From assembly GCA_036785375.1 (NCBI GenBank), contig JAWMAR010000070.1, positions 7,254,001 through 7,318,000 of the forward strand: a DNA stretch of 64,000 nucleotides, in the 5' to 3' direction. The position numbers and the translations under genes were made by a program. The notes under the pieces are model-generated. The model was not told the origin of the DNA. It did not search any database and saw only the letters and a list, made by a program, of their open reading frames with translations. This document shows positions 2,500 to 45,200 of this stretch, one piece after another (within the stretch, counting starts at the first letter, position 1; each line of letters opens with the position of its first letter). This DNA comes from Leucoraja ocellata. Lineage: Eukaryota.

Positions 2500-2693
2500 C
2501 GGCCAATGCTCCGTGGGAGGCAGTGATTGGTTGAATGTACGTGAGGGCAGACAATGAGGGGCAGGAGAAGCCGGGAGTCGGTATAAAAGGAGCGAGCGAT
2601 GGCAGGAGATGAGAACAAGACCGACCCCGTCACCCTGTGTGGAGACTCCGGAGCTGGTAACCAACCCTGTGGATCCTTCAAGTGTCTGTGAGT
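2500..2693 (+). promoter_or_regulatory. Putative promoter and non-coding exon 1 of Ig-V gene copy 1
   Basis: CCAAT at 2503-2507, reverse CCAAT at 2526-2530, TATAAAA at 2582-2588, and candidate splice donors GTAACC (2657) or GTGAGT (2688). The same module lies upstream of copy 2 in the same relative orientation. Confidence 0.6.
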
Positions 2694-3236
2694 GATGGGG
2701 GTGGGATTGTCTCTGTTCACTGTTCCCCCAGTTCAGAAGCCTGATAGCAGAGGGGAAGAAGCTGTTCCTGAGTCTGGTGGTGCGCGCTTTCAAGCTTCTG
2801 TACCTTCTGCTAGACAGGACCAGGGAGAAGGAGGAATGACCGGGGTGGGACTAGTGATGGAGTCATAGAGTCACAGCGAGACCTTCGGCCCAACTTGCCC
2901 GCGCCCACCAACGTGCCCCCATCAATACTAGACCCACCTGCCTGCGTTTGGCCCTTACCCCCCTAATCCTGTCCTATCAATGTACCTGTCTAACTGATTC
3001 TTAATCATTGTGATAGTACCTGCTTCAACTACCTCTTCCGGCAGCTCGTTCCAAACACCCTCCACCCTTTGTGTAAAAAAGTCACCCCTCAGTTTCCCAT
3101 TAAATCTTTCCCCCCCCCTCGCCTTAAACCGATGTCCTCTGGTTCTCGATTCCCCAACTCTGGGCGGGTTCAGGGAATGTCATCATGAATCCTACTGAGT
3201 TGCAATAAGGTGACCCATTGTTTCACCCACAGGAAC

Positions 3237-3746
3237 ATGGGACTGCAGAGATGGATAGGATTCATGGTCCTTGTGGAGATGGTGTGGCAAGTCTCCGCAA
3301 CTGGAACAGGTCCGATCTCCAGAGAATGGGGAGAGGAAGCAAACTTGGCCGGGTGGAACGCACGGGAGCCTCGACAAGTCAACAAACAAGATACTCCACA
3401 ATGCGGTGCTATATCAGCTTCGACCAAGTTACAATTCACGGATATAGAGACAAGCCAGGGTGGTTCTACTACGCTACCCTGTAAAGTACCCACAGGGAAG
3501 GATGGACCCAAGACTTTTGAGGTCACCTGGACTAAAGGGACGAAGACATTGGCCGTGTTTACTATAGGGAAAGGTGCCAATTATCCAGGGGGGGCCGGCC
3601 GCTGGAAGTTCAAGGAAACAAACGTGGATGAGACACGGGATGCCTCGTTGGTCATCAAGGGTTTACAGAAGAGTGATGTTGGGATGTATTCCTGCACTTG
3701 GCAAACGGGCAAAGATAAATGTAGACTAACTTCCAAGCTGTCATGA
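3237..3746 (+). CDS. Putative secreted single Ig V-set domain protein, copy 1 (signal peptide + pro-segment + V domain in one exon)
   Basis: Splice acceptor tttcacccacag ends at 3232 and ATG is at 3237. A hydrophobic N-terminus ends VSA, followed by an REPR motif. V-set hallmarks are TTLPC, VTW, RDASL and DVGMYSC. No transmembrane segment. Confidence 0.8.
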   Translation: MGLQRWIGFMVLVEMVWQVSATGTGPISREWGEEANLAGWNAREPRQVNKQDTPQCGAISASTKLQFTDIETSQGGSTTLPCKVPTGKDGPKTFEVTWTKGTKTLAVFTIGKGANYPGGAGRWKFKETNVDETRDASLVIKGLQKSDVGMYSCTWQTGKDKCRLTSKLS

Positions 3747-4149
3747 AGTAAAACCTCACACTGACCCAGCACAGGCCCCCCCCATGTCACAGAAGCAACA
3801 GGCAGTGGCAGGACAGCAGAAACACACAATAACATCCATCATTATAAACTTCACACACTTAGACCAACAACAGCATTCTATATTGTAGTCACTTAATTGA
3901 TCATGAGGGGAATAGAGGGGTGAACACAAAACATCTTTTACCTGGGGTACGGGAATCAAGAACCAGGGGGACATAAGTTTAAGGTTAGAGGGGCAAGATT
4001 TAATAGGAACCTGAGGGGCAACATTTTCACTCAGGGGGCGGTGGGTTTATAGAACTGTCTGGTGGGGTGGGAATTGTAACAATATTTAATACACACTTGG
4101 GACAGGGAAAGGTTTAGGGGGATATGGGGCAAATGTAGTGCAATGGGAC

Positions 4150-4400
4150 AGATCGTGCTTGCATCGGTAAATGTATCATTAATGGAAATAAACTCTCTTG
4201 AAGACAGCCGGTGTGAGTGATTCTTTGTACGCCAGCATTGAGTTGGGTGTGAACTTTGTGCAACTCTTGCTCACTACGGGCAACATCGCCGGCTTCTATG
4301 AGCTGTGTCCAACATTGTCCATGACCACACGGGGACGGAACAACATGTGGAAAATCAGGAGTCCGCAGATGTTGAGAACAGGAACAAAAATAACGGGGAA
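4150..4400 (+). terminator. Conserved 3' module with poly(A) signal for Ig-V copy 1
   Basis: AATAAA at 4187-4192 followed by GT-rich sequence. Near-identical copies lie downstream of copy 2 (11415-11670, minus) and at 63800-64000 (minus). Confidence 0.55.
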
Positions 4401-4841
4401 TGTTGTCAGGAACAAAACAGGGACAAAAGTAAAGACTATATTTAAGAGGGAGTTAGATGTGGCCCTTGTGGCTAAAGAGATCAGGGGGTATGGAGAGAAG
4501 GCAGGTACAGGATACTGAGTTGGATGATCAGCCATGATCATATTGAATGGCGGTGCAGGCTCGATGGGCCGAATGGCCTCTACTCCTGCACCTATTTTCT
4601 ATGTTTCTTTGACACAAAAGTAGGCGGTTTTGCATGTGCAGGACCTACACAGTGAATAGTCCAGCTCTGGGGAATGTTGTAGAGCAGAGGGATCTATGAG
4701 TGAAGGTACATGGTTCCTTGAAGATGCAGTTGCAGGTAGATACGGTGGTCAAAAAGGCTTTTGGCACTTTGGCCTTCATCAGTCACAGTATGGAGTATAG
4801 ATGTTGGGAGGTCATCTTGCGTTGGTGAGGCAACAGTGAGT

Positions 4842-5880
4842 CAGGTACATGGAGAGGACAGGTTTGGAGGGATATGGACCAAACACAGGCAGGTGAGACT
4901 AGTGTAGCTGGGACATGTTGGCCAGTGTGGGCAAGTTGGGCCGAAGGGCCTGTGTCCACACTGTATCACTCTATGACTCTATTACACTATGACATTAAAT
5001 AAATAATGATTACAAAATGAAACTCCACATAAATCCCATCTTCTCCTCTGGCTGTCTACACAACACACGCATTGACTGCAGCAGATACAATGAATGTCAC
5101 ACTGGGGGTACCAGGGCACCTCTGGAAAATGTTCTTCTCAAGATGTGATTGAGAAGATGATGTAACATAGAACATGGAACAGCACAGGAACAGGCCCTTC
5201 GGCCCACATGGTCCGTGCTGAACATGATGCCAAGTTCAGCTAATCTCCTCTGCCTGCACCTGATCCATAATCTCAATTCCCTGCATATCCATGAGATTTT
5301 TTAGATAAAGACCCTGAACTATTGTATCTGCCTCCACCACCCACAGCATCGTGTTCCAGGCACCCACCACCCTCTGTGTCCAGCACATCTTTAAATGTTT
5401 CCTATCTCAATAGACAATAGACAATAGGTGCAGGAGTTGGCCATTCGGCCCTTCGAGCCAGCACCGCCATTCACTGTGATCACCGCCATCCACAATCAGT
5501 ACCCCATTCTTGCCTTCTCCCCATATCCCTTGACTCCGCTATATTTAAGAGCTCTATCTAACTCTCTCTTGAAAGCCTCCTACCCTAAAGCGATGCCCTC
5601 TAGTCTTTGGCATTTCCACTCTGCGCAAATTGGTTCTGACTGTCTACCCTATCTGGCTCTCATAGAAACATAGAAACATAGAAATTAGGTGCAGGAGTAG
5701 GCCATTCGGCCCTTCGAGCCTGCACCGCCATTCAATATGATCATGGCTGATCACCCGACTCAGTATCCAGTACCTGCCTTCTCTCCATACCCCCTGATCC
5801 CTTTAGCCACAAGGGCCACATCTAACTCCTTCTTAAATATAGCCAATGATTTGGCCTCAAATATCTTCTGTGGCAGAGAA
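4842..5880 (-). repeat. Right arm of inverted segmental duplication (partner 1142-2300)
   Basis: Reverse complement of the left arm. The CR1 is uninterrupted here (ggaattctctgcc on the minus strand). Confidence 0.85.
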
Positions 5881-6180: not shown

Positions 6181-6730
6181 TGTCAACTTCTTCTTTCGTG
6201 TGGCGTGCACAGCCTAAAGTTGTAGGACAACTTGTTCTATTTGATGTTGAAGTAGAAACTGCAGATACTGGAAAATCAAAGGTACACAAAAATGCTGGAG
6301 AAACTCAGCGGGTGCAGCAGCATCTATGGAGCGAAGGAAATAGGCAACGTTTCGTCCCGAAGGTTCCCAGAGGTTGCAGGTGGTTGCCGGAGGTTGCAGG
6401 TAGTGGAAGCAGGTAGGGAGACAGACAAAAACCTCCGGGAACCGCACGGAAACCTTGGGTGGGGCGCAAAGTCTCCAGAGGTTTCCGTTCAGGTTTCCCA
6501 AGTGGGACAGGGGCATTAGTGCAACCTTGGACATTCCATAGACGTTCATCGTTGACCTCAGTGTCGTGTCGTGTTCAACAGCCTGATGGTTGTTGGGAAG
6601 GAAGAATTGATCCAACGCCATCCCAGCTGCCGGATCAGATTGAGTATAAACTGCGGAACCAGCGCAGGTGCCAAGGGCTGTGGTGGTGACGTGGCGTGGC
6701 TGGGACATCTGGTCCGATGGGTGGCCAAAG

Positions 6731-7156
6731 CGAGACGTGTTGGAGACACAAGCAGGATGTGTGGGGCGCCTGGTTGGCCGCTGGCAGCTGGGATGACGTT
6801 GTTCTTGTTAAACGTTAACGGCTGATGCAACGACACGTTTGGCAGAGGGTGGAGAGGTCGCGGCTGACTCCGGCCAATGCTCCGTGGGAGGCAGTGATTG
6901 GTTGAATGTACGTGAGGGCAGACAATGAGGGGCAGGAGAAGCCGGGAGTCGGTATAAAAGGAGCGAGCGATGGCAGGAGATGAGAACAAGACCGACCCCG
7001 TCACCCTGTGTGGAGACTCCGGAGCTGGTAACCAACCCTGTGGATCCTTCAAGTGTCTGTGAGTGATGGGGGTGGGATTTTCTCTGTTCACTGTTCCCCC
7101 AGTTCAGAAGCCTGATAGCAGAGGGGAAGAAGCTGTTCCTGAGTCTGGTGGTGCGC
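6731..7156 (+). pseudogene. Orphan third copy of the Ig-V promoter/exon-1 module, truncated by a Gypsy element
   Basis: Near-identical to ~2360-2787 (TATAAAA at 6953-6959). Identity stops abruptly at 7156, where Gypsy pol begins, and no prepro-Ig exon follows. Confidence 0.6.
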
Positions 7157-7157
7157 A

Positions 7158-9215
7158 ATCAGGCTGATATTTCACTGAAGTCCGGAATAAATTTGCTCAA
7201 GTAGTTCACGATGCTAAGGAATCTCTGCAGACTGAGCACGTGTGTGGGTGCTGGGAGCTTGTTGATGGCACTGCTTTTCACCGGATCAGTTTTTAGGCCA
7301 TCCTTAGTGAACACATGACCTAAGCATTTCACCTCACTTACCCTGCATTTGCATTTTTTAGGGTTTAGCTTGAGGTTGATGGCCTTGGCGCGATGCAGGA
7401 CCTTTGTCAGATTTGCATTGTGATCTTCGACAGTTCGTCCAGCAACGAGGATGTCATCCACTACAATGGAGCATGGGTAAACCGCAAACAACTGCTCCAT
7501 AGCTTGTTGAAATACTTCACTGGCAGAGCTTATGCCAAAAGGCATGCGAAGAAATTTGTAACGCCCGAACGGATTGCTAGGTGGTTAACTTAGAGGCGTT
7601 ATGTTCCAGCGAAATCTGCCAGAATGAGCTCTTGGCATCTAGTACAGTGAATACAGTTGCCTCAGCCATCTGCACTGCAATCTTGTCCACAGTGTGCATG
7701 GGATAGTGAGGTCATTGAATGCCTGTGTTTAAGTCCTTATGGTTGATACAAATCCGTATTTCGTCTTTACTCTCCTTCGTTGCCACAACCGTGGAGACCC
7801 AATCCGAGGGGTCAGCGACGGGAGCAATCACACCTAGAGATACCATTCCGTTGAGTTCACTTTGAACACGGTCCCGCAATAGCATGGGGAATCTTGTGAG
7901 CTGGACAGACAACTGGGATTATCTCAGGGTTAATGGTAATTGTGTACTTAGCAGGCAGCCTGCCCAGCTTGTCGTCAAAAAAAGTTTTGTATTGTGTCAG
8001 GATTTGTTGGCTAAAGTCACAGGTTGTAGTCAGATGACAAACAGAAAGGCTGAAAGAGACAAGTCCCAGGTCGTGACAAGCGTTGGCACCCAGCAGAGAC
8101 GGCACATGCTCACGAACAACATAGAAACTCAGGTTGTGGACACGTGAGTTAAGACAGCAGCGTAACTCGACTTGACCGATAGGGTGCACTGGACATCCTG
8201 CAAATGGGAGAAGGGAGGCAGTCGTAGGAGTGACGGTCTCTGTTTTTCATAACTTTTTCAACACAGCTAGACAGATCACATTACATCTGGCCCCTGAGTC
8301 AACTTTCAGATAAAAGTTTTTGCCATTAATGAGCAAAGCGACCTTGGGGTCTAGTTGTTTGTGTATTGAGTCAGATGGGAATGCACATCACAATCAAAAC
8401 CTTCGCTAGCAGCCTGCAAATCCGTGGGAGCTGGTTGAGAGCAAGTTCAACTGCAAGTTCTCATGGCCAAGTGAGTTAACAGATTGCCTTGTTTGAACTC
8501 TGTTGCTACGTGAGCGGCAGAATTTGATGAGATTATTCCTTTTGTTACAAAATCGACATAATTTTCCATACGCAGGGCAACGGCACTGGCATACATCTCC
8601 ACAGGCTCACCCTGTCTCTGGCTTCGGGAAAAGAACAAATGCCTCTCCATGACCAAGTTAGTGCGTAACTCACATAACTGTTGGAATTAGCGTGGTAGGC
8701 AATCAGGGTCACGGATAGACTCAGCGGGAACAATCTGGACACCAGCCGGGTCAAACCTAGCCAGTTCATAATGAAATCTTCTGGCAGCATCATGCAGCTT
8801 CTGTGCCTGCTAGATTAAGAAGAATTGACGCTTGAACACCGGGAGCAGCAGTAGGGTGAGTTGCTTCAATGTAAAATGAGAAATCTTCTTCAAATATGCG
8901 CCACCTTTCTGCGAGATCTTCGTGGTGTTACACAGGATCTCTGGGTTTTCTGAGAGCAGAAGCCACAGTAATATATACCGGAGGAAACAACAAACTAAAA
9001 TAAAAACAAGGAGTGAGGCCGTCCACTCTGACACCATGTCGATATTCTGCTATTGGAATAACTTAAGTCACACACAGTGATTAAGATCCAAAGACTTTAT
9101 TAGCGTTACAGCATAGGTAACTTCATCTTAATATGTAACTCAAGACTGAGGGAGAAAGGGCTGAGAAGCTTTCTGTTAAACTAGTGGGCGTAGCTACAAA
9201 GTATGACTCACAACA
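7158..9215 (-). mobile_element. Decayed Gypsy/Ty3 LTR retrotransposon (5' LTR, PBS, gag, protease, RT; truncated)
   Basis: LTR at ~9037-9215 (TGTTG...CGACA, internal AATAAA) with the PBS TGGTGTCAGAGTG adjacent (tRNA-Leu-like). Protease motif LKVDSGARCNVI at ~8280-8330. RT motifs MPFGISSASEVFQ and VVDDILV at 7159-7545. Frameshifts and stops are present. Confidence 0.85.
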
Positions 9216-25000: not shown

Positions 25001-25781
25001 ATCACTCAGGGGGCTCCACTCCATTGCTAGTGTTGGGACTGAGGACTTGGCAAACCAGCACACACTGGGAGCAGAAGGTGGGGACACGGGAGAGTAGGAA
25101 CATCATCTCAACAGAGTTCCAGCAACCTTCAACTGAAGATGGACACAGAGTGCAGGAGTAACTCAGCGGGTCAGGCAGCATCTGTGGAGAACATGGATAG
25201 GTGACGTTTCACAAAGTGCTGGAGTAACTCAGCGGGTCAGGCAGCATTTATGGAGCTAAGGAAATAGGCAACGTTTCGGGCCGAAACCCTTCCGGCCCGA
25301 AACGTTGCCTATTTCCAGAAGGGTTTCGGCCCGAAATGTTGCCTATTTCCTTAGCTCCATAGATGCTGCTGCACCATAACTCAGCGGATCAGGCAGCATC
25401 TGTGGAGAACATGGATAGGTGACGTTTCACAGAGTGCTGGAGTAACTCAGCGGGTCAGGCAGCATCTGTGGAGAACATGGATAGGTGACGTTTCACAGAG
25501 TGCTGGAGTAACTCAGCGGGTCAGGCAGCATCTGTGGAGAACATGGATAGGTGACGTTTCACAAAGTGCTGAAGTATCACAGCGGGTCAGGCAGCATCTC
25601 TGGAGATTAAGGTTAGATAGAGTCGAGACCATTCAGACACCTTTATAATAAAACGTGAGAAACAATTTAACCTGTTCTCATCATTTAATGTCTAAACCTA
25701 ATTCATTCAAAAAGCATTCCAATATCAAAAGGAATTAAACAACAAAAGACTCTTACCTGTTCCAAGAAGTAGCTTTGCCAT
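16048..25781 (-). CDS. chia: Acidic-mammalian-chitinase-like GH18 chitinase with one CBM14 domain (11 coding exons, 477 aa)
   Basis: Exons: 25781-25757, 23996-23967, 23872-23671, 22822-22766, 21815-21650, 20951-20827, 19937-19811, 19126-18944, 18229-18113, 16895-16757, 16310-16048. All introns are GT-AG and the frame is open (1434 nt). Motifs: MAKLLLGT signal start, [20 protein letters not shown], intact [23 protein letters not shown], Gly/Ser linker, CBM14 ending CKCCNWP. Confidence 0.92.
21121..21590 (+). repeat. Composite tandem array of 66-bp units with embedded palindromic element (similar arrays at 25140-25610, 27100-27660 minus, 30200-30620, 34550-35190, 37040-37400 minus)
   Basis: Unit gtgctggagtaactcagcgggtcaggcagcatctgtggagaacatggataggtgacgtttcacaga; the embedded hairpin is built on ggaaataggcaacgtttcgggccgaaaccc. 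Confidence 0.85.
24185..24690 (+). mobile_element. Young CR1-type LINE 3' fragment (intronic, antisense to chia)
   Basis: Open frame [14 protein letters not shown]...[18 protein letters not shown]; near-identical to 61697-62168. Confidence 0.9.
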
Positions 25782-25814
25782 CTTGTTACTGTTGCTGACT
25801 AGACCTGAGCTGCC

Positions 25815-25940
25815 TCTTTTATACAATGAGCTTATCACGAACAATAATCCAATGTGTTTGTCGTTCCCTTTATCAGAGTGAAAGGGCAGTCACGATGATC
25901 CTCCTGCTATTTACAAAGGGAAAATAATAGTTCTTATCTT
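25815..25940 (-). promoter_or_regulatory. chia promoter: TATA box and GATA sites
   Basis: TATAAAA on the minus strand at 25817-25823, ~36 bp upstream of the ATG. GATAA motifs near 25831, 25869 and 25934. Confidence 0.55.
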
Positions 25941-26339
25941 GACTTCAATATTTTCTCTTCAATGTCATTCAGATTGTTCACCTTCATTTTCACCTCAATT
26001 TTGTTCCTGAGCCTGGTATGGAAAAAACATAGAAAATAGGTGCAGGAGTAGGCCATTCCATGAATTGGCCTCCACTGCCATCTGTGGCAGAGAATTCCAC
26101 AGATTCACAACTCTCTGGGTGAAAAATATTCTCCTCATCACTGTCCTAAATGGCCTTCCCTCTCCTTCACCTACTTAGTTTAGAGATACAGCATGGAAAC
26201 AGGCCCCATCGGCACGCCGGGACCACGGCAACCAGCGATCATGCGTTCACAGTAGATCGATGTTTTCCCACTTTCTCATCCACTCCCTACTCACTAGGGT
26301 GCAATTTACAGAGGGTCATTTTTCCTACAAACATAGAAA

Positions 26340-26870
26340 TATAGAAATTAGGTGCAGGAGTAGAGGCCATTAGGCCCTTCGAGCCTGCACCGCCATTCAA
26401 TATGATCATGGCTGATCATCCAACTCAGTATCCCGTACCTGCCTTCTCTCCATACCCCCTGATCCCCTTAGCCACAAGGGCCACATCCAACTCCCTCTTA
26501 AATATAGCCAATGAACTGGCCTCGACTACCCTCTGTGGCAGAGAGTTCCAGAGATTCACCACTCTCTGTGTGAAAAAAGTTCTTCTCATCTCGGTTTTAA
26601 AGGATTTCCCCCTTATCCTTAAGCTGTGACCCCTTGTCCTGGCCTTCCTCAACATCGGGAACAATCTTCCTGCATCTAGCCTGTCCAACTCCTTAAGAAT
26701 TTTGTAAGTTTCTATAAGATCCCCTCTCAATCTCCTAAATTCTACAGAGTATAAACCAAGTCTATCCAGTCTTTCTTCATAAGACAGTCCTGACATCCCA
26801 GGAATCAGTCTGGTGAACCTTCTCTGCACTCCCTCTATGGCAATAATGTCCTTCCTCAGATTTGGAGACC
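26340..26870 (-). mobile_element. Young CR1-type LINE 3' fragment
   Basis: [25 protein letters not shown]...; near-identical to 37913-38390 and 62760-63190. Confidence 0.9.
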
Positions 26871-29384
26871 AAACCCGCACGTCTTTAGGATATGGGAGGA
26901 AAATGGAGTACCTGGAGAAAGCCCATGCAGTCACAGAACAAATGTGTAAACTCCATACAGACAGCTCCCGAGGTCAGGATTGAACCCAGGTCTCTGGCGC
27001 TGTTAGGCAGCGGTTCTACCAGTTCACCACCGAGTTGCTATTCTATTACAGCTTTCCTGCTCCACCTGCCCCCCTTACAATCAGTCTGAAGAAGAGTCTC
27101 GACCCGAAACGACACCTATCCCTTTGCTCCAGAGATGCTGCCTGACCCGCTGAGTTACTCCAGCACTCTGTGAAACGTCACCTATCCATGTTCCTCCACA
27201 GATGCTGCCTGACCCGCTGAGTTACTCCAGCACTCTGTGAAACGTCACCTATCCATGTTCTCCACAGATGCTGCCTGACCCACTGAGTTATGGTGCAGCA
27301 GCATCTATGGAGCTAAAGAAATAGGCAACGTTTCAGGCCGAAACACTTCTGGAAATAGGCAACGTTTCGGGCCGAAACCCGGAAGGGTTTCGGCCCGAAA
27401 CGTTACCTATTTCCTTAGCTCCATAGATGCTGCTGCACCCGCTGAGTTACTCCAGCACTCTGTGAAACGTCACCTATCCATGTTCCTCCACAGATGCTGC
27501 CTGACCCGCTGAGTTACTCCAGCACTCTGTGAAACGTCACCTATCCATGTTCTCTACAGATGCTGCCTGACCCGCTGAGTTACTCCAGCACTCTGTGAAA
27601 CGTCACCTATCCATGTTCTCCACAGATGCTGCCTGACCCGCTGAGTTACTCCAGCACTTTGTGACTTTTAAAATAATTAAATCCAGCATTAGTTTTCCAT
27701 TTCCATGTTGCCCATTGAACACATTTGAGTCAGTGTCCCTACACTGAGTTGATATCACCGTCTATCTGCTCCTCTCTCTCCTCCCCATCACCAGCACGTG
27801 AAACCAATCTCTCGCCCACCAATTCCCCTCTCTCTGTTCATAGGTTCTAGGAGCAGAATTAGGCCATTCGGCCCATCAAGTCTACTCCGCCATTCAATCA
27901 TGGCTGATCTATCTCTCCCTCCCAACCCCATTCTCCTGCCTTCTCCCCATAACCCCTGAGACCCAGACTAATCAAGAACCTGCCAAACTGCACTTTAAAA
28001 ATACCCAATGACTTGTGGCCTCCACAGCCACCTGTGGCAAAGAATTCCACAGATTCACCACCCTCTGACCAAATAAATTCCTCCTCATCTTCTTTCTAAA
28101 GCTACGTCCTTTTATTCTAAGGCTGTGCCCTCTGGTCCTAGACTCTCCCACTAGTGGAAACATCCTCCCCACATCCATTCCATATCCAAGCCTTTTACTA
28201 TTCGGTAAGTTTCAATGAGGTCCCCTCATCCTTCTAAACTCAAGCGAGAACAGACCCAGTGCCTTCAAATGCTCATCATACGTTAACCATGATCCATATG
28301 CCTCCACTCCATGTGCCTGCCTAATCACCACTATCATATGTGCCTCCACCACCACCCCTGGCAGAATTCTTCAGGCACCCACCACCCTCTGTGGAAAATA
28401 AATCTACCCCACACATCTCCTTTAAACTTGCCCCCCTCATTTTAAAGCTATGCACTTAATATAAAATTCTTAAGGGATTGGACAGGCTAGATGCAGAAAA
28501 AAAATTCCCAATGTTGGGGGGAGACCAGAACCAGGGGTCACAGTTTATGAATAAGGGGTTGGCCATTTAGGACTGAGATGAGTTTGCACATTTTTCCTGT
28601 GACTGCATGGGGTTTCTCCAGGCGCTCTGGTTTCCTCCCACATCCCAAAGACGTGCTGGTTTGTGGGCCAATTGACCCTCTGTAAATTGCTCCTAGTGCG
28701 TAGGGAGTGGATGACAAACTGGAAAAACCGATCCACTGTGGACGGGTGATCGCTGGTCGGCGTGGACACGATGGGTTGAAGGGCCTGTTTCCATGCTGCA
28801 TCTCTAAACCAAGTTAGTGAAGGAGAGGGTAGAATAAGGGGTCGGCCATTTAGCACTGAGATGAGGAAAACGTTTTCCACCCAGAGAGTTGCGAATCTGT
28901 GGAATTCTCTGCCACAGAAGGCAGTGGAGGCCAGTTCACTGGATGTTTTCAAGAGAGAGTTAGATAGAGCTCTAAGGGCTAATGGAATCAAGGGATAAAT
29001 GGGGAGAAAGCAGGAATGGGGTACTGATTGGGGATGATCAGCCATGATCATATTGAATGGCGGTGCTGGCTCGAAGGGCCGAATGGCCTACTCCTGCACC
29101 TATTTTCTGTGGGGGGTTTTTTTCTCTGGCACGTGCAGAAAAGTTGTTTAGTTCTTATCGTTTCAGCAAACTTGTGAATGGAATAAATTGGCACATGTTT
29201 GTCAAGAATAAAGGAAAGACCTTGGGGCTGAGTTGATAGATGCGAGTAATCTGGTGAAAGAATCACATGCCCACTTTTGCGTAAGCTGCAAGATATCCTT
29301 TGCAAATAATGAAATGACGACATAAAACCCAACCTCTCACTGTATCTTGGTACATGTAACAATAATAATGTGCACCACCAATAA

Positions 29385-30035
29385 CAACTTAAGGTTGAGG
29401 CTACAGCAAGATAGCACACCAACGACTCTACTTCCTTAGAAGCCTTAGGAAGTTTGGCATCTCCCCTACAACTACAGATGCACCACAAAAAGCATTTTAT
29501 CGCGATGCATCACAGCAATGTTTGGGAACGGCTCCATCCAAGACCGCAAGAAATTGCAGCAAATTGTGGGCGCAGCCCAGACCGTCACGCAAACCAACCT
29601 CCCTTCCATCGACTCCATTTATACCTCACGCTGCCTCGGCAAGGCCAGCAGCATCATCAAGGACCAGTCTCACCCCCTGGTCACTCCCTCGTCTCCCCAC
29701 TCTCATCAGGCAAAAGGTACAGAAGTGTGAAATCGCACGCACACACCTCCAGATTCAGGGACAGTTTCTTCCCAGCTGTTATCAGGCAACTGAATCATCC
29801 TATCGCAACTAGAGAGCAGTGCTGTACTAGTATCGACCTCATTGGTGACCCTCGGACTATCTTTGATCGGACTTTGCTGGCTTTACCTTGCACTAAACAT
29901 TATTCCCTTATCATGTATCTGTACACTGTGGATGGCTCGATTGTAATCATGTATTGTCTTTCCACTTTCTGGTTAGCAAGTAACAAAAGCTTTTCACTGT
30001 ACCTCGGTACACGTGACAATAAACTGAACTGAACT
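29385..30035 (+). mobile_element. Rex1/Babar-like LINE 3' fragment
   Basis: [26 protein letters not shown] and TSRFRDSFFPAVIRQLN, followed by 3' UTR and aactg tail. Confidence 0.75.
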
Positions 30036-33000
30036 GAACTTCTTTGAGTGTTGACCATAATGGGTGAACCATGGAGATAACTCAACATGACCAACTTCCT
30101 TGGTTTTAAGCTTTAATGCTCATTTGGCCTCATCCAAGAGATATCTTTGGCAGAAACAAGGAAGTGAAGATACTGGTTAATACACAAAAGGACACAAACT
30201 GCTAGAGTAACTCAGCAGGTCAGGCAGTATCTGTGGAGAACATGGATAGGTGACGTTTCACAGAGTGCTGGAGTAACTCAACGGGTCAGGCAGCATTTAT
30301 GGAGCTAAGGAAATAGGCAACGTTTCGGGCCGAAACCCTTCCGGGTTTCGGCCCGAAACGTTGCCTATTTCCAGAAGGGTTTCGGCCCGAAACGTTGCCT
30401 ATTTCCTTAGCTCCATAGATGCTGCTGCACCATAACTCAGCGGGTCAGGCAGCATCTGTGGAGAACATGGATAGGTGACGTTTCACAGAGTGCTGGAGTA
30501 ACTCAGCGGGTCAGGCAGCATCTGTGGAGAACATGGATAGGTGACGTTTCACAGAGTGCTGGAGTAACTCAGCAGGTCAGGCAGCATCTTCGGGGAACAT
30601 GGATAGGTGACATTTCGGGCCGGGATCTTTCTTCAGACTGATTGTAGGGGGAGGAGAAAGCTAGAAGAGGGGAGAGGCAGAACAACGAGTGGCAGGTAAT
30701 AGATGGACACAGGCAAGGAAGGTTTTTGATAGGCAGATGTTTGGAACAAAGGCCAGCGATAAAAGCAGAAGGTGTGCAACAGGACGAGGAGTTGCAATTG
30801 TGAAGCTAGAGGGAGGAAAGTGACAGGAGGGGAGGGGAGGGAATGGAGGGGAGAATTAGGTAGGAGTCCTGGTGGGGCACAAGGAGGAGGGGGACAGGGG
30901 GTAGAAAGGGGAGGGTATGGGGGAGAAGGGAGGGCGAGTTTGGAATTGTGGCCTACTTACCTGGGAAAAGATGGATCAGCTTTAGAGTGGTACACCGCAA
31001 CGGTTCACCAGACACAACACAGGAGATGCTGGAATCCTGAGCAAAATGCAAAGTGTTGGAGGAACTCAGTGGGTCAGGCAGCATCTGTGGAAGGAAATGG
31101 ACAGGCGACCATTTGGATGGGGACCCTTCTTCAAACTGATGAAGAAGGCTCCTGACCATTCCGTCCACAGATGCTGCCCGACCCGCTGAGTTCTCCCAGC
31201 ACTTTGTTTCATGTTCAACAAACTGAGATACTTGATACCGTGAGGGATATAGTGTTACAATAGGATGGTAGGGTTCAGCGGTAGAGTTGCTGCCTCGCAG
31301 TCCGTGCAGCGCCGGAGACCTGGGTTCGATCCCGACTACGGGCGCTGTCTTTACGGAGTTTGTACGTTCTCCTCGTGACTGCCGTGGGATTTCTCCAAGA
31401 TCTTCGGTTTCCTCCCACACTCCAAGGACGTGCAGGTTTGTAAGTTATTTGGCTTGGTAAATGTGAAAATTGTCCCTAGTGTGTGTAGGATAGCGTTAAT
31501 ATGCAGGGATTGCTGGTTGGTGCGGACTCAGTGGGCCGAAGGGCCTGTTTCAGCGCTGTACCTCTAAACTAAACTGCAGAGAAACTGCAGGTAAAAAAAG
31601 TTCAAGGGTTACAATGAGGTAGATAGGAAGATCGGGAATTCATCCCTAATATATGAGAGGTATGTTCCAGTGCCTGGTTCAGAGGGAAAGAACTGTTCTT
31701 GGACCTGGTAGTACATGCTTGCCTTTGTGTCTTCTGCAGATCTCACGACCTTTTGTAATCACCAACCAGCGATCGTGCCGTATACTAACATTATCCCACA
31801 CACTAGGGACAATTTTACCAAAAACAATTACCCTGCAAAGCAACAATCACCCATATACTTGTTCTATCCCACACTCTGGGGACAATTTACAAAAGCTAAT
31901 TAACCTACAAGCCTGCACGTCTTTGGAGTGTGGGGGGAAACCTGAGCACCCAGAGAAAACCCATGTGGTCACGGGGAGAACGTACCAACTCCGTATGGAC
32001 AGCACCTGTAGTCAGGATCGAACCCTTGTCTCTGGCGCTGTGAGGCAGCAACTCTACCACTACGCCACTGTGCCACCCACTGTGTGTTGGTACATGTTCT
32101 TTTTTGTATCTTCTGCAGATCAAGTCTCACAACGACAACTGGGGGATTTAAATCCTGTTAAATAAGTCAATCTACAATTATAAGAGAAGTCCACTTCAGT
32201 CACTGCGATCATGAAAATCGAAATCATTTAGCGTAGGTCCCTTGTCCCCCCTTACCTGGTCTACAGGTGTCTCCAGTTGCACCAACGTTGGTCTCTTGTC
32301 CAGTCGGGACAACTATGGGTGGACGGCTGCTGTTGGCGATGTCCACCGTCTCCACAAAGACTCCACCGATGTCCAGCTGGAGATCAGGAGGAAGCAGAGG
32401 GAGCCTGGAGGGAGGTGCCCAACGTCGGGTGAACAGAGAGCGAGAGTCTGAGCCTTGGTCAGATGGACGAGGGTTTTGTAAAGATTGGGGATGCGGCAAT
32501 GACCAAGCGTGAGGAACAAGCCTCAGCTGACTGTGTGTGTCAACCTAACCACATCCTGCAGCAACATCTAGATGCTCAACAACAACAGTCACATCGCAAC
32601 CACATTGCAACACAGTTGGTTTGGTTTGGGTTAGTTTAGTTTATTATCACGTGTACCGAGGTACAGTGAAAAGCTTTTGTTGCGCGCTAACCGTCAGCGG
32701 AAGGACGATTCACGATTACAATCGAACCGTCCACAGTGTACAAATACAGGATAAAGGGAAAAACAGGCCCTTCAGCCCATCGAGTCCGCGCCTACCAACA
32801 ATCACCCGGCCACTGCTCAGGACAATTTACCAAAGCCAATTAATCTACAAATCTGTACGTCTTTGGAGTGTGGGAGGAAACCAGAGCACCCGGAGAAAAC
32901 CCACTCGGGTTACACAGAGAGAACGTACAAACTCCATGCAGACAGCACCCGTGGTCAGGATCAAACCCAGGCCTTTGGTGCTAGGAGGCAGCAATTCTAC

Positions 33001-33394
33001 TGCTACGCCACCGTGACTCTCATTACTCATTTTAGACATTTTCCTTTAGATTTCAGCAATTGCTTCAATGGGAGCGCAGCCAGGAATCCTTACTCCTCTG
33101 ATGATAAGACGCAAAGTGCTGGAGTAACTTAGTGGGTCAGGCAGCATCTCTGGAGAGAAAGGATGGGTGGCGTTTGCGGTTAGAACCCTTTTTCAGACCC
33201 AGTCGGAAGAAAGGTCGTGACCCGAAATGTCTGAAGAAGGGTTCCAACCAGAAACGCCACCCATCCTTTTCCTCCAGAGATGCTGCCTGTCCCGCTGAGT
33301 TACTCCAGCACCTTGTGTCTATCTTTGGTATAAACCAGCATCTACAGTTCTTTGTTTCTACAGCCTCAGTCATGTGCTAGGTAGAACAAGTTGT

Positions 33395-33765
33395 CTGAAA
33401 ATAGTGAAAGGCCTGGATAGAGTGGATGTGGAGAGGGTGTTTCCACTAGTGGGAGAGTCTAAGACTAGAGGTCTTAGCCTCAGAATTAAAGGACTTTCCT
33501 TTAAGAAGGAGATGAGGAGGAACCTCTTTAGTCAAAGGTTGGAGAATCTGTGGAATTCTTTGCCACAGACGGCTGTGGAGCACAAGCCCAAGTCAATGGA
33601 TATTTTAAAGCAGAGATAGATAGATTTTTGATTAGTACGGGTGTCGGGTTACAGGGAGAAAGCAGGAGAATGGGGTTAGGAGGGAGAGATAGATCAGCCA
33701 TGATTGAATGGCGGAGTAGACTTGATGGGCCGAATGGCCTAATTCTGCCCCGATTACTTATGACC
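33395..33765 (+). mobile_element. CR1-type LINE 3' fragment
   Basis: KGLDRVDVERVFPLVGESKTRG...NLWNSLP. Confidence 0.8.
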
Positions 33766-36700
33766 TTAAGACTGCTTAATGGTTTCAGAGATTTCACTTC
33801 ATCAAGGCCTTCTCTCTTCCTATTTCTCTTCCCAACATCACCCTGTAACATGCACTCTTTTATTTATGGGGGTGGACAGATGCAAAGTGGAAGATAAGTC
33901 ATCCAGACCTGAAATCAAGTCGAGAGTCAAGGGTGTTTCATTGTCATTTGTACTGACAAAACCACAATGAAATTCGTACTTGTGGCAGTGTAACAGGTCT
34001 GTACATATAGTGCACATAGATAATGTATAATAAGCAAAATATTCAATAAATTAATAACCCTAATAGTGCAAAAAGCCCAAAGTCCTTAGTTCATCGATTA
34101 GTGACACAAGGAACTGTAGATGCTGGAATTGTGAGCAAAAGGCACAAATTGCTGGAGTAACTCAGCAGGTCAGGCAGCGTCTCTGGAGAACATGGAAGGT
34201 CACAGTTGGGGTTGGGACCCTTCTTCAGACTGATTGGAGTAGGGGGGGAGAAAGCCGGAAGAGAGGTGGGAGTGTGATGAAGCCTGGTGAGTGATAGGTG
34301 CATCCAGCATTTTGTGTTTCCTTTTCATTTCTTTATTGCTTGACTTCCCTTGAAGGTCAATGACAAATCAGTTCCACCTTCACCAACCCTCAGCATGAAC
34401 CGGCCTCCCACACACTATTTGCCAAACGCTATTTATGACAGTGACGATTACATGGTGGGTCCGGAGGTGGAGGACAGGTGTGGATCGTGGAAAAACAAGA
34501 GTAAGTTACCATCGTCCACACCCAACGTGAAAACAATCTGAGGACAGACGCAAAATGCTGGAGTAACTCAGCAGGTCAGGCAGCATCTGTGGAGAACATG
34601 GATAGGTGACGTTTCACAGAGTGCTGGAGTAACTCAGCGGGTCAGGCAGCATCTGTGGAGAACATGGATAGGTGACGTTTCACAGAGTGCTGGAGTAACT
34701 CAGCGGGTCAGGCAGCATCTCTGGAGAACATGGATAGGTGACGTTTCACAGAGTGCTGGAGTAACTCAGCGGGTCAGGCAGCATCTGTGGAGAACATGGA
34801 TAGGTGACGTTTCACAGAGTGCTGGAGTAACTCAGCGGGTGCAGCAGCATCTATGGAGCTATGGAAATAGGCAAGGTTTCGGGCCGAAACCCTTCTGGAA
34901 ATAGGCAACGTTTTGGGCCGAAACCCGGAAGGGTTTCGGCCCGAAACGTTGCCTATTTCCTTAGCTCCATAGATGCTGCTGCACCCGCTGAGTTACTCCA
35001 GCACTCTGTGAAACGTCAACTGAAGATGCTGCTTTATGCCAGAGATAGACACAGAGTGCTGGAGTAACTCAGCGGGTCAGGCAGCATCTGTGGAGAACCT
35101 GGACAGCTACAAAGTGCTGGAGCAACTCAGCGGATCAGGCAGCATCTCTGGAGGAAAGGAATAGGTGATGTTTCGGGTCGAGACCCTTCTTCAGACCAAC
35201 CCGTTGCCTGGTGGCCAAAGTTGAAAGACATGCAATAGATCCTTCTGCTCATGAGCTGCCACAGACACAGAATAATGGGAATAATGTTTAGTGCAAGATA
35301 AAGTCCAGTAAAGTCTGATTAAAGAGAGTCCGAGGGTCTCCATCAAGGTGGGTGGTCAGTTTTGGTTATGCTGCTAGAGGAAGTTTTATCTGCAGGTTTA
35401 TAAGACATTGGTTAGGTCGCATCTGGAGTATTGTGTGCAGTTCATTTCACTCCATTACTGGAAGTATGTCTAGTTTATTTTGTTTTAGTTTAGAGATACA
35501 GCGCAGAAACAGGCCCTTTGGCTCCGACCATCGATCCCCGCACACTAACACAATGGTCGATGGACGATGACACGTTGGCCTGGCTCGCCTCAACGGAGCT
35601 GCAGGTCTAAAAGACATACGACAGATGAAGAAGAACACAATCCTACAAACACTAGGGACAATTTACACTTATACCAAGTATTCAAACCCAAACCAAGTAA
35701 TCTACAAGGAAGGGAGTGCAGGAGAACGTACAAACTCTGCACAGACAGCACTCGTAGTCAGGATCGAACCCGGGTCTATGGCGCTGTAAGGCAGCAACTC
35801 TACCACTGTGTCACCCATCAATGAGTCATAATGCATGGAAAGAGACCAAGATGTCCCATCTGCCTGTGTTCGGCCAAATATTTTTTAAACATTGCCATAG
35901 TACCTTACCTCCTCTAGTAGCTCGTTCCTAACACCCACCACCCATTGTGTAAAAATATATGGAGGCTTTGGAGAGGTTGCAGAGGTTTACTAGAATCACG
36001 CCTCGATTACAAGGAATTATCTACATGGAGAGGTGTAAGATCTGCCATAAATTGGATATTTTCCCCTTATGTTTGACCTCTCAAAGTGTAACACCTCACA
36101 CTAGCTCAAATTAAACTCCATCTGCCATTTCTCTGCCCATTTCTGTAGCTGATCTATATCCCGTTGATTATGATATATTTATCTGTATGTTTAGTTTAGT
36201 TTGGTTTGGAGATACAGTGCGGAAACAGGCCCTTCGGCCCATTGAGTCTGCGCCAACCAGCGATCACCCTGTACACTAACACTATCCTACACACACTAGA
36301 GACAGCAGTTTTACAGTTACACCAAGCCAATACACCTGTACACACCTACACACCTGTACGTCTTTGGAATGTGGGAGGAAAGCAAAGAAACCGGAGGAAA
36401 TCTAAGCAGGTCTCAGGGAGAACGTGCAAACTCCGTACAGACAGCACCCATAGTCGGGATGGAACCCGGGTCTCCGCCGCTGTGAGGCAGCAACTCTACC
36501 GCTGCACCACCGTAGCGCCCATGTGTTATTGCATTAGTTAAGCTGCAGCAAGTCAAAATGTCATTGTCCATTGTTGATATTGAGGTATGAAAGGTACAAA
36601 GAACAAACGAATGAAAGATATGAAAATAACAAATCAAAGCCAGCAATGAAGATCAAGGAAAGGTGGAGCCCACAATGGTCTATTGTTGACCGTGGGAAAA

Positions 36701-37599
36701 GGTGATAACGAGTAGATACAAACAGTGAAACTGGTAGTTTAAGAAGGAACTGCAGATGCTGGAAAAATCAAAGGTAGACAAAAATGCTGGAGAAACTCAG
36801 CGGGTGAGGCAGCATCTATGGAGCGAAGGAATAGGTGACGTTTCGGGTCGAAACCCTTCTTCAGACAGGTAGGAAGACTAGGGTGGGGGAATTAAGGAGA
36901 GAGAGGAAATGCAGGAATTACATGAAATTAGTGAAATCAATATTCATACCGCTGGGTTGTAAGTTTTCCAGTTGCCTACCATGGGTATAGAATAACTAGA
37001 TGAACGGAATGTGGAAATGAGGAACTGAAGATGGGTCCTGACCCAAAACGTCACCTATCCATGTTCTCCACAGATGCTGCCTGACCCGCTGAGTTACTCC
37101 AGCACTCTGTGAAACGTCACCTATCCATGTTCTCCACAGATGCTGCCTGACCCACTGAGTTATGGTGCAGCAGCATCTATGGAGCTAAGGAAATAGGCAA
37201 CGTTTCGGGCCGAAATCCTTCTGGAAATAGGTAACGTTTCGGGCCGAAACCCTTCCGGGTTTCGGCCCGAAACGTTGCCTATTTCCTTAGCTCCATAGAT
37301 GATGCTGCACCCGCTGAGTTACTCCAGCACTCTGTGAAACGTCACCTATCCATGTTCTCCACAGATGCTGCCTGACCCGCTGAGTTACTCCAGCACTCTG
37401 TGTCCTTTCCGGAATGATCAGATTGAGTGCGCTTTATTTGAGTATCGGGTATTTGCTTTAATATAAAGAATGTTGCTGTACCTTAGTACATGTGATAATA
37501 AAGGACCCATTGTCCCAGCGCCTCTTGTGCTAAACCTGGTAGGCACTGCCATCTTGTGGCCATAGGAAAACTGCAGTGTCAATTGCAGAATCAAAGTTA

Positions 37600-39944: not shown

Positions 39945-40244
39945 GCCTGGGCTATTGTAAGTATCTATGAAAGGAGATCTGCTGCAGAAGCTTTGCACCG
40001 ACTGAACTATCTCTGCTACAAGTGTCTGTGCTCCATCAGAAATGTCAATGGCTCCTCTCCCTGCAGCAGAAGAGGAGGGGGCAAGAGAAGACTTTGTGCT
40101 AACCACATTGATGGTATGTACGGTGATCTGAGGGACCCAGCCAACGTCTATCGATGCTTTAGAGGAGAAGCAATTGCACAATATTGTGCCCGTGGATTAG
40201 TGTTTGCCAAAGAATGTAAATGTTGCAACAAGCTTGCCCTCTGA
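39945..40244 (+). CDS. Orphan terminal exon encoding a CBM14 (chitin-binding type 2) domain; 5' boundary uncertain
   Basis: LCANHIDGMYGDLRDPANVYRCFRGEAIAQYCARGLVFAKECKCCNKL has the same six-Cys spacing as the chia CBM14. AATAAA at 40307-40312. No recognisable GH18 exons upstream on this strand. Confidence 0.7.
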   Translation, partial: AWAIVSIYERRSAAEALHRLNYLCYKCLCSIRNVNGSSPCSRRGGGKRRLCANHIDGMYGDLRDPANVYRCFRGEAIAQYCARGLVFAKECKCCNKLAL

Positions 40245-42275: not shown

Positions 42276-45200
42276 ATGGTAAAGATCATCTTCTGCGCTG
42301 GTAAGAATGACATTCAGCTATATATCTGAACAATCAGAAGCTCGGTTAATGGCCTTAAACCTTGCAAACATGATGGATTTTTTAATCAATTTCTTGAACC
42401 ATCCTGCACAACTCTAATCCTACCCAACCAATCACTACGAACCACACCTTGCGCTACTGTGGACTTGTTTTCTCATTGTGTATTGTTGCCCCAATGTCTT
42501 CAGATTTATTTTTCCAGTCTTTTTATTTTTCACCATCTTGTAGAGTGCTCCAGTTTTCTCCCACATGCCAAAGATGTGCGGGTTTGTAGGTTAATCAGCC
42601 TTGGTATATTGCCCCTAGTGTGTGGGGAGCCGGTGAAAAAGTGGGAAAACATAGAACTATTGCGAACTGTTGATCGATGGACTTGGTGGGCCACAGAGTT
42701 TCCATGATATATCTTTCAATCAATTCAATTTATACCTCATTTATGTGCAATTCATCTAATGTTTATGTATGTTTTCGTCTGTTGTCCGAGTCCAAGATTT
42801 TCTATATTTTGTTTCTATTATTTCAGTGGGATTCCTGCTGTTGTTACAAGCATACAATGGTAAGCAGCATGCACTGAATTTATCCCATACCAACACCATG
42901 AATATTTATGCCGTCATCGGTCAAAGTTAATCTAATCAGCTGTCGTTTGTTGCAGAGTGAAAATCTCAAATACAGGTGTTGATAGCAATTTACTGTAGAT
43001 CACAGTGAATGGCGGTGCTAGCTCGAAGGGCTAAATGGCCTCCTCCTGCACCTATTTTCTATGTTTCTACGTTAATCATTGTACGAAAATACTTTCATTT
43101 ATTGAGCACAATACTGGGGGTGGGAGATTGCAACCTTCACGTGGTCCGCCCTGTTTCGATTAATGCAATCAACCCGGCGGGCACAATCAAATAAGATCAA
43201 ATAGAACAAGTTGTCCGACAACTTTAGGCTGTGCACGCCATATGCAAGGGGATGAAGAAGAAGCACAAAGGTACACAAAATTGCTGGAGAAACTCAGCGG
43301 GTGCAGCAGCATCTATGGAGTGAAGGAAATAGGCAACGTTTCCGGCCGAAACCCTTCTTCAGACTGAATTAAGAAGAAGCACAATACTGGAGAACACAGA
43401 TATGTGACGATTTGGTGTAAGATTATTCTTCGGAATGAGTTTTGAAGCTGGGTCTCGACCTATCCATGTTCTCCAGAAATGATGCCTGACCCGCTGGGTT
43501 ACTCCAGCACGTTGTCTCTTTTTGTTTAAACCAGCATCTGCAGTTCTTTGTTTCTGCTTTCATTTACACAAAGGCTATCTGCCAGTAGGAAATGCTTCCA
43601 TTTCGAAGCTTCAAATGGGTTTTCTAATTGTATTTAATAAAAAAATCGATTGACAACTTTTTTGAAACCAGTTTTAAGCCAGGACTACAAGATAGTTTGT
43701 TACTATACAAACTGGGCACATAAACGAGGAAACTGCAAGTTCCTACCAGAAGATATCAACCCCAAGTTATGTACACATCTGATCTACGCCTTCGCTGTTA
43801 TTGGCAAGAACCATGAAATGGTCCCACAGCAGACAGAGGATGAAAACCTCTATGAGTCGTTTAATAATCTGAAGAAACGGTACGTGAATTTACGAGACCT
43901 TGCAACGATTGTTAACTTAAATGTTTAATTCCACTGCAAATCTCTTCACAGGAAACTATCACAATCAGTTGAGTGCAGGAGGATGAGGGGTGATCTCATT
44001 GAGGTGGATAAGATTATGTGAGGAATAGAGATGCACAGAGTCTCTTGCCGCGAGTAGTGGAATCGAGGACCAGAGGACATATGTTTAAAGTGAAGGGGAA
44101 AGATTTAATAGGAAGCTGAGGGGTAACTTCCTCACACAAAGGGTGGTGGGTGTATAGAACAAGCTGCCATAGGAGGTAGTTGAGGCTGGGACTATCCCAA
44201 CATTTAAGAAGCAGTTGGACAGGTGCATGGATAGGACAGGTTTAGAGGGATGTGGACAAAGTGTGGGCAGGTGGGACTAGTGTGGCTGGGACACGTTGGC
44301 TGGTGTGGGCAGTTTGGGCCGAAGGGTCTGTTTCCGCACTGTATCACTCTATGTCTATCTCACTTTTTTTTTAAATGAGGAATTGGTTTTCAAAATCTAT
44401 GCAGGAAATTACCATCAGCTTAATATTAAATATATGTATGAACATATTGTACCGTGCAGAAATGAGTCTAAAATAATGAGAGGAAATCTCTCACGAGAAA
44501 GGTTTCGGTGGTAACCATTAAGTGTCCTGTTAAAACAGTTAAGAGTTCAATACTGAAACTAATTAGTTAGTGTTGGCAAATAGACTTTTTTTTTCATAAT
44601 TCACAATTGCATTAAACCACTGTGGATTTATCCATCTTTAGTCATTTCCAATTCCCAAGCCTCCTTTAGTTTAGTTTGGTTTAGAGATATAGCGTGGAAA
44701 CAGGCCCTTCGGCCCACCGAGTCCGCACCGACCAGCAATTCCTGCGCATTAAGACTATCTTACCAATACACACACTAGGGACAGTTTACACTTAAACCAA
44801 GCCAATTAACCTACAAACCTGTAAATCTTTGGAGTGCGGGAGGAAACCGAAGATCTCGAAGAAAACCCACGCAGGTCACGGGGAGAACATACAAACACCA
44901 TGCAGACAGCACCCATAATCAGGATCGAACCCGTGTCTCTGGAGCTGCAAAAATCTGTAAGACAGTGCGGCCCAAAATTCTGATTTATTCAATTACTTCA
45001 ATTTAAATTTTGTACTGGCTATAGTGGGACTTGAACTCATATCCCTGGATCAATAATCCAGCTCCCAGTCCACTCATTTAACTGTTCTCCCCGTGACCAT
45101 GTGGGTTTCCTCCTCGTGCTCCGGTTTCCTCCCACTCTAAAGACACGCAGGCTTGTAGATTGAAGTAGGGTTTCGGCCCGAAACGTTGCCTATTTCCTTC

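Follow-up and report, generated by a model that had tools for sequence, protein, structure and literature searches.

The window, a 64,000-nt stretch of the Leucoraja ocellata genome, contains two complete genes, gene A (coding sequence 3237-3746, forward strand) and gene B (12707-12198, reverse strand), each encoding a 169-residue protein. In both genes, a signal peptide, a short pro-piece and one immunoglobulin (Ig) V domain form one open frame in a single exon. A six-frame profile search found only these two leaders and two V domains in the window.

The promoter and non-coding exon 1 of gene A (2343-2687) carry a CCAAT motif (2503-2507) and a TATAAAA motif (2582-2588), both spotted in the sequence. 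They belong to a homogenized block, with one mismatch against gene B over 2391-2834 and 98.2% identity to a third promoter, copy C. The following GT..AG intron (2688-3232) is identical to that of gene B at its ends (2688-2834 and 3169-3232), and its repeat-derived middle is not common to the two genes. The exon junction is in frame, as in the Leucoraja erinacea and Logan proteins (..KCL-N-MGLQ). A further homogenized tract (3169-3373, 3 mismatches in 205 nt) covers the intron end, the signal peptide (M1-A21, predicted by eye) and the pro-piece up to the Arg46 codon. There it meets the RQVN junction (3372-3383), which is conserved in protein and synonymously diverged at three of its four third positions, and then come the V-set domain and stop codon (3384-3746). 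A one-base deletion near 3743 places the stop two residues before the end of the paralogues. Downstream are a proximal 3′ UTR (3747-3803) with weak homology to gene B (score reached by 1 of 500 shuffles) and a 3′ module (4148-4403) with AATAAA (4187-4192) as a candidate poly(A) signal, in which the 200 nt beyond AATAAA (4194-4393) are identical to gene B.

An in-frame upstream ATG lies in the region 2599-2687, 17 nt past the TATA box, and would add a 31-residue N-terminal extension. This extension is present in the L. erinacea database models and in the Logan protein P0011, is absent from the Rhinoraja model, and may be an untranslated leader. If the upstream ATG is used, the signal peptide could become a signal anchor. 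We also noticed an 874-nt inverted duplication (97%, repeat-derived) flanking the gene A unit, with arms at 1436-2309 and 4832-5705, 2522 nt apart, which is possibly a trace of the origin of this copy.

Gene B, on the reverse strand, consists of a promoter and exon 1 homologous to the gene A block (13298-13594), an intron placed by correspondence with gene A (12712-13297), a coding sequence (P0002, 12198-12707) with the same leader and a different V lineage, and a matching 3′ module (11416-11671). Directly upstream of its promoter, at 13595-13650, a segment from inside the promoter is repeated in inverted orientation over 56 nt (51 of these as in gene A). This fold-back has aged, while the promoter itself stayed more than 99% identical.

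Copy C (6715-7156, forward strand) is an orphan promoter with exon 1 and intron start, 99.7% identical to gene B over 395 nt. No leader or V domain follows it within the 64-kb window by profile search in six frames. A broken LTR-retroelement-like relic (7157-9000, reverse strand; RVT_1 2.6e-13 at 7162-7584) truncates it. A third, truncated 3′ module (63800-63998, reverse strand), 96% identical to that of gene B over 199 nt, suggests a further family gene just past the window end. Between gene B and this module, GH18 chitinase genes that carry CBM14 domains are clustered (16051-24023, reverse strand; 39945-40241, 43641-58428 and 59130-61313, forward strand), and one of these genes ends with CBM14 three times in tandem within one exon. 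The V genes appear to be interleaved with chitinases, and this neighborhood recalls the protochordate VCBPs, which combine V and chitin-binding domains. The window also contains 160-475 nt repeats (21116-37408; 93-96% identity, both orientations) with 66-nt periodic sub-units, and a frame at 1-640 that resembles, as judged by eye, the tyrosine-recombinase end of a DIRS-like element.

Both proteins scored above the Pfam V-set cut-off (5.6e-10 for gene A), with invariant C82, W98 and C153 as the B-strand Cys, C-strand Trp and F-strand Cys, and the predicted model reached a pLDDT of ~81-93 over residues 71-169. On this basis, we class the skate domain as a member of the V-set Ig superfamily. The best fold match was nectin-1 D1, the best PDB sequence matches were JAML and PVR, and the profile probability to D1 of a shark "nectin-2-like" protein (XP_067831298) was 98%. 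In sequence, fold and profile, the domain is closest to nectin/PVR D1, by small margins over CAR, JAML and CD226. PMC7286890 defines nectins and nectin-like proteins by a V-C-C ectodomain, a transmembrane segment and a cytoplasmic tail. In the skate proteins, the V domain is followed by the stop codon, and C-type domains, anchor and tail are all lacking; a search for longer family forms returned only three generic Ig proteins, a weak negative. The PVR-family lock is given as AX6G in PMC10486284. Of the 12 skate proteins, 6 carry A- or G-X6-G (3 of them with A), none of these in the gene B lineage, and 0 carry the T(F/Y)P key, whereas an electric-ray relative carries the lock and has TTYP as the key. 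The skate proteins thus resemble the first domains of nectin, PVR, CD226, CD96 and TIGIT in fold and sequence, and the ray relative retains both lock and key, but the skate proteins differ from this group also in an extra Cys pair (C56/C162 in gene A) and the pro-piece. By these features, the skate V would work like a soluble nectin-type V, yet is not a nectin.

A J-type G-strand motif reads (F/W)GxG, and none was found in the family alignment; leader and V lie in one exon instead of being split. A relaxed scan for recombination signal sequences (RSS) at the V edges, based on their consensus, gave three weak matches, all in the 3′ UTR. With respect to signals, split leader and J motif, the genes therefore do not look like RAG-rearranging or germline-joined antigen receptors.

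The relatives found were nine L. erinacea proteins, one from Rhinoraja, one from an electric ray and one Logan protein (P0011). A one-protein search returned seven clusters and a profile search eight (six L. erinacea, one Rhinoraja longicauda, one Narcine bancroftii). Among the 12 skate proteins, leaders are 84-100% identical and mature parts 28-99%, and the stop codon directly follows the V domain in all 13 proteins. R-x-x-R is present in 10 of the 12 and missing in P0006 and P0012. We regard R-E-P-R / Q at the gene A junction as a putative processing site; residues 1-52 of the model are mostly of low confidence, and the putative cleavage after Arg46 rests on the motif. Among the 150 representative matches listed, only P0008 and P0065 carry the leader, and the ESM Atlas returned generic V-set clusters. 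A viral origin was dropped, as a search among viral folds matched only generic V domains, at 10-20% identity.

P0065, the "nectin-1-like" protein XP_069798310 of the electric ray Narcine bancroftii, shares with the skate proteins a homologous signal peptide, PRQV, four Cys, a single V domain and the early stop. It differs in a longer acidic pro-piece and ~28-34% identity, and only one such protein was found there. It probably belongs to the family. Its leader is already homologous and joined to a V domain, so the union of leader and V would predate the skate expansion.

The spliced junction in P0011 suggests that a transcript exists. In the raw RNA runs X24 (~5/100 read) and X22 (~1/100 read; tissues unspecified), depth appeared only in 11 of 30 bins, which contain repeats, and not on the exons, so these runs are uninformative on expression, start site and poly(A) use. 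Our search, by accession as well, found no description of the family in the literature, supplements and most subscription papers lying outside its scope. The family is apparently undescribed, and supplements of skate genome or transcriptome papers may list these loci.

The original prediction held that gene A and gene B are nearly identical over 3169-3383 and the reverse complement of 12561-12775, intron included. An ungapped comparison bore this out: exactly 6 of 215 nt differ (3300, 3348, 3351, 3374, 3377 and 3383), with 0 mismatches over the 64 intronic nt 3169-3232. Three of the six (3374, 3377 and 3383) fall, as predicted, in the RQVN codons, at synonymous third positions of R46, Q47 and N49, which implies that the motif is old, held at the protein level and outside the copied tract. 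The predicted collapse of similarity in the V domain was also found, the mature parts being ~51% identical in DNA (50/50/53% for the first, second and third positions of 112 aligned codons). The non-coding flanks are far more similar than the coding domain, with 98.9% over 465 nt for the promoter block and 96.1% over 256 nt for the 3′ block. Similarity does resume in the poly(A) module, but only ~400 nt past the stop codon.

A two-rate model was preferred over a one-rate model by 86 log-likelihood units. The edge is best placed not at 3383 but at 3374 (posterior 0.38; ~0.87 within 3369-3377), in the Arg46 codon. The cleavage site itself is a prediction from the motif. The 5′ edge (3168/3169) is just as sharp, since A and B are unrelated in mid-intron (score reached by 57 of 200 shuffles). 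In order, 2391-2834 is shared, the intron middles are unrelated, 3169-3373 is shared, and the V domain and proximal 3′ UTR are diverged; beyond these, A and B carry different repeats and then the shared 3′ module. The pattern is a patchwork rather than a single cassette, and the diverged island reaches into non-coding DNA, namely the proximal 3′ UTR. A match in the distal 3′ UTR was set aside as a very high-copy repeat fragment. A LINE-like piece of the intron (2731-2834) has 0 mismatches between A and B, and its other copies in the window match at no more than 92%. Protein selection cannot be the cause of the identity of this piece or of the DNA beyond AATAAA. These DNA comparisons cover the two complete genes, and the other family members were compared as proteins only.

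Four-fold sites differ between A and B at 0 of 20 positions in codons 1-45 and at 5 of 15 in V (Fisher p=0.009). By NG86, dS was 0.10 in the leader vs 0.90 in V, and dN 0.03 vs 0.72; the V dS depends on the alignment, from 0.44 (15 sites) to 0.90 (NG86). Pairwise V dN/dS of ~0.8-1.6 hints at diversifying selection, short of proof. The V domain of gene B is 86% identical to L. erinacea P0007, 62% to Rhinoraja P0009 and 30% to gene A, whereas the leader of gene B shares 93% identity with that of gene A and 86% with that of Rhinoraja. The V tree unites P0002, P0007 and P0009 (95/94). Monophyly of the 11 non-Rhinoraja proteins was rejected (AU p=0.004) for a clade named after the first tree was seen and with a long-branch outgroup; Rhinoraja represents another skate family. 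On the protein tree, the V lineages are old and predate the split of the skate families.

The edge position varies among paralogues from residue 43 to about 50, with P0006 and P0012 diverging from 44 and the others from 49-50. P0008 and P0012 are 94% identical in V and have the junctions APRQVT and AYFKVT, respectively; the P0008 junction equals that of P0005 from the other lineage. Such a variable edge fits conversion tracts of varying length that survive only if the mature domain is spared.

Across V lineages, the DNA of the promoter, intron ends, leader and 3′ module is near-identical, neutral sites included. Conservation of the leader at the protein level alone would be equally compatible with purifying selection. 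We consider it probable that the flanks are homogenized by paralogous gene conversion or unequal exchange while selection keeps the V lineages distinct. Of the three explanations first put forward, gene conversion between old paralogues agrees with the equalized neutral sites and the old V domains, with selection on V as its complement; pure positive selection was rejected and V-cassette swapping found no support, as detailed below. In the favored mechanism, repeated ectopic conversion or unequal exchange between neighboring copies would overwrite the flanks. Tracts would stop at heterology, as provided by the diverged V and by repeats inserted into the intron and 3′ UTR. Those entering the mature domain would erase a useful binding variant and be selected against, so that the edge would creep up to the mature N-terminus and halt within a few codons of it, and site-specific machinery would be unnecessary. 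cDNA-mediated conversion was ruled out, as promoter, intron and post-AATAAA DNA are homogenized. We read the locus as part of a skate family of tandem genes, each for a secreted protein with one V domain, that undergoes patchwork concerted evolution.

A bolder reading, which we consider quite unlikely, is a germline, non-rearranging, secreted and protease-activated V repertoire derived from a nectin/PVR-like receptor, with germline diversification restricted to V and its edge at the processing site. If true, V-restricted diversification would mean hypermutation or exchange of V blocks between units on one homogenized promoter, and skates would possess, in addition to IgNAR, a second single-domain binder system, innate and set among chitinase genes.

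Hypermutation of this kind was proposed earlier for conopeptide and frog skin peptide precursors. Here, the copies would be fairly young, and a targeted mutator would raise both synonymous and non-synonymous change, but only downstream of Arg46. The sharp edge near the mature N-terminus and the near-equal divergence at the three codon positions agree with this, as does a V contig from an independent run, X3, in which 18 of 273 nt differ from gene A vs 0 of 212 and 4 of 223 in the flanking contigs (among the matches listed). However, one V lineage spans two skate families at 62-86% identity, P0004 and P0010 are 99% identical in V, and, as expected of old paralogues, A and B differ in the repeats inserted in their intron middles and distal UTRs. 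We therefore consider V-restricted hypermutation improbable.

Similarly improbable is cassette exchange, in which divergent V segments are recombined into a common expression unit. An orphan promoter does exist in copy C, and a double crossover within the near-identical flanks would move a V block and leave the pairwise picture unchanged. Yet the ray leader was already joined to its V, the window offers no free V donor (two matches only, both the V domains of the known genes), and the RSS scan detected no signals at the edges. The 3′ edge is undefined, the junction edge spans residues 43-49 among paralogues, and neither the intron middle nor the UTR is common to the units.

A recent duplication without conversion, after which V evolved under extreme positive selection and the flanks under purifying selection, would account for the V dN of ~0.7 and for a leader nearly invariant over 12 proteins. 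For this case, the original prediction looked to a low V dS, and the observed 0.44-0.9 is not low. At the flank rate (7/656), ~0.9 synonymous differences would be expected over all 80 synonymous sites of V; at least 14 were seen, 14 of the 38 identical-residue codons with synonymous options differing (P ~6e-13). The V lineages are also older than the family split, and the ray leader is far diverged, which means that the leader is not inherently frozen. This explanation is highly improbable.

Contigs from two other studies (runs X1 and X3) were aligned to gene A, and the following concerns the matches listed, 16 of 68118 pieces; contig depth does not equal copy number. In X1, a promoter contig of depth 412.6 differed from gene A at 1 of 374 nt, and four V contigs had depths of 26-41. 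Among these four, the contig at 3344-3498 crosses the junction with 4 differences, and another, ungapped and with 1 difference, ends V at the same place as gene A. In X3, the promoter and leader contigs (1 and 0 differences) had depths of 34 and 30.6, and V 4.19. The resulting flank-to-V depth ratio of ~7-16 agrees with the nine annotated L. erinacea proteins. Additionally, two X3 contigs at the gene A intron middle (3136-3347 and 2826-2961) had flank-like depths of 30.6 and 25.5, so most copies probably share the intron of A, and gene B is the exception. Collapse or cross-polishing of the flanks, the artefact against which the original prediction had warned, is hardly credible: near-identical repeats are prone to it and none of the listed contigs spans the whole gene, but both independent runs reproduce the flanks with 0-1 differences at many times the V depth and bridge the junction in X1, and the L. 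erinacea proteins show the identical pattern.

As to function, the common promoter and secretion leader would co-express a panel of soluble nectin/PVR-like binding domains, and the mature V is predicted to be released by cleavage after Arg46. The skate V proteins would most likely counter variable proteins of pathogens or parasites, as decoys or soluble ligands, at somewhat less than even chance in our judgment. A role in reproductive recognition is possible but less likely, and one in gut or skin tied to the neighboring chitinases is rather doubtful. The locus suggests that batoids have a panel of soluble V domains derived from nectin/PVR, which has expanded in skates and could serve as antiviral decoys, recognition proteins or small stable binder scaffolds. 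It also provides a clean case in which conversion halts within one exon, a few codons from the predicted mature N-terminus, in ~10 paralogues, and hence a natural test of how selection fixes the ends of conversion tracts. The evolutionary process is already known; the family is apparently new, and an edge inside one exon is unusual.

In conopeptide and amphibian skin-peptide precursors, a basic processing site likewise separates a conserved prepro region from a hypervariable mature part, but these are short disulfide peptides, whereas the skate product is an Ig domain and nothing suggests venom. Shark UrIg and UrIg2, like the rearranging antigen receptors, also belong to the V-domain genes of elasmobranchs; gene conversion occurs in UrIg2, and UrIg encodes a secreted protein and does not rearrange. 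According to PMC12227049, however, they have a split leader, a VJ domain, C1 domains and conversion in the C domains, unlike the skate genes. The PSG-like CEACAMs of bats and horses are closer in kind: they are secreted proteins, some with a single IgV, that expanded in particular lineages, have a diversifying V and were proposed to act as decoys or in reproductive regulation. As described in PMC5594555, they are mammalian, have a CEACAM-type V and separate leader and V exons, and have no pro-piece. The closest parallel in process is ruminant CEACAM32, where, according to PMC7042247, gene conversion in cattle affects the leader and intron and not the Ig-domain exon, keeping the mature protein distinct. 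There, the edge is at exon borders and one paralogue escapes; in skates, it lies inside one exon, several V lineages escape, promoter and 3′ flank are homogenized as well, and the Ig subfamily is different. The same signature is nevertheless found here: neutral-site identity of the flanks is far above that of the coding domain in genes A and B, and, at the protein level, mature-domain lineages are orthologous across species while their flanks are not.
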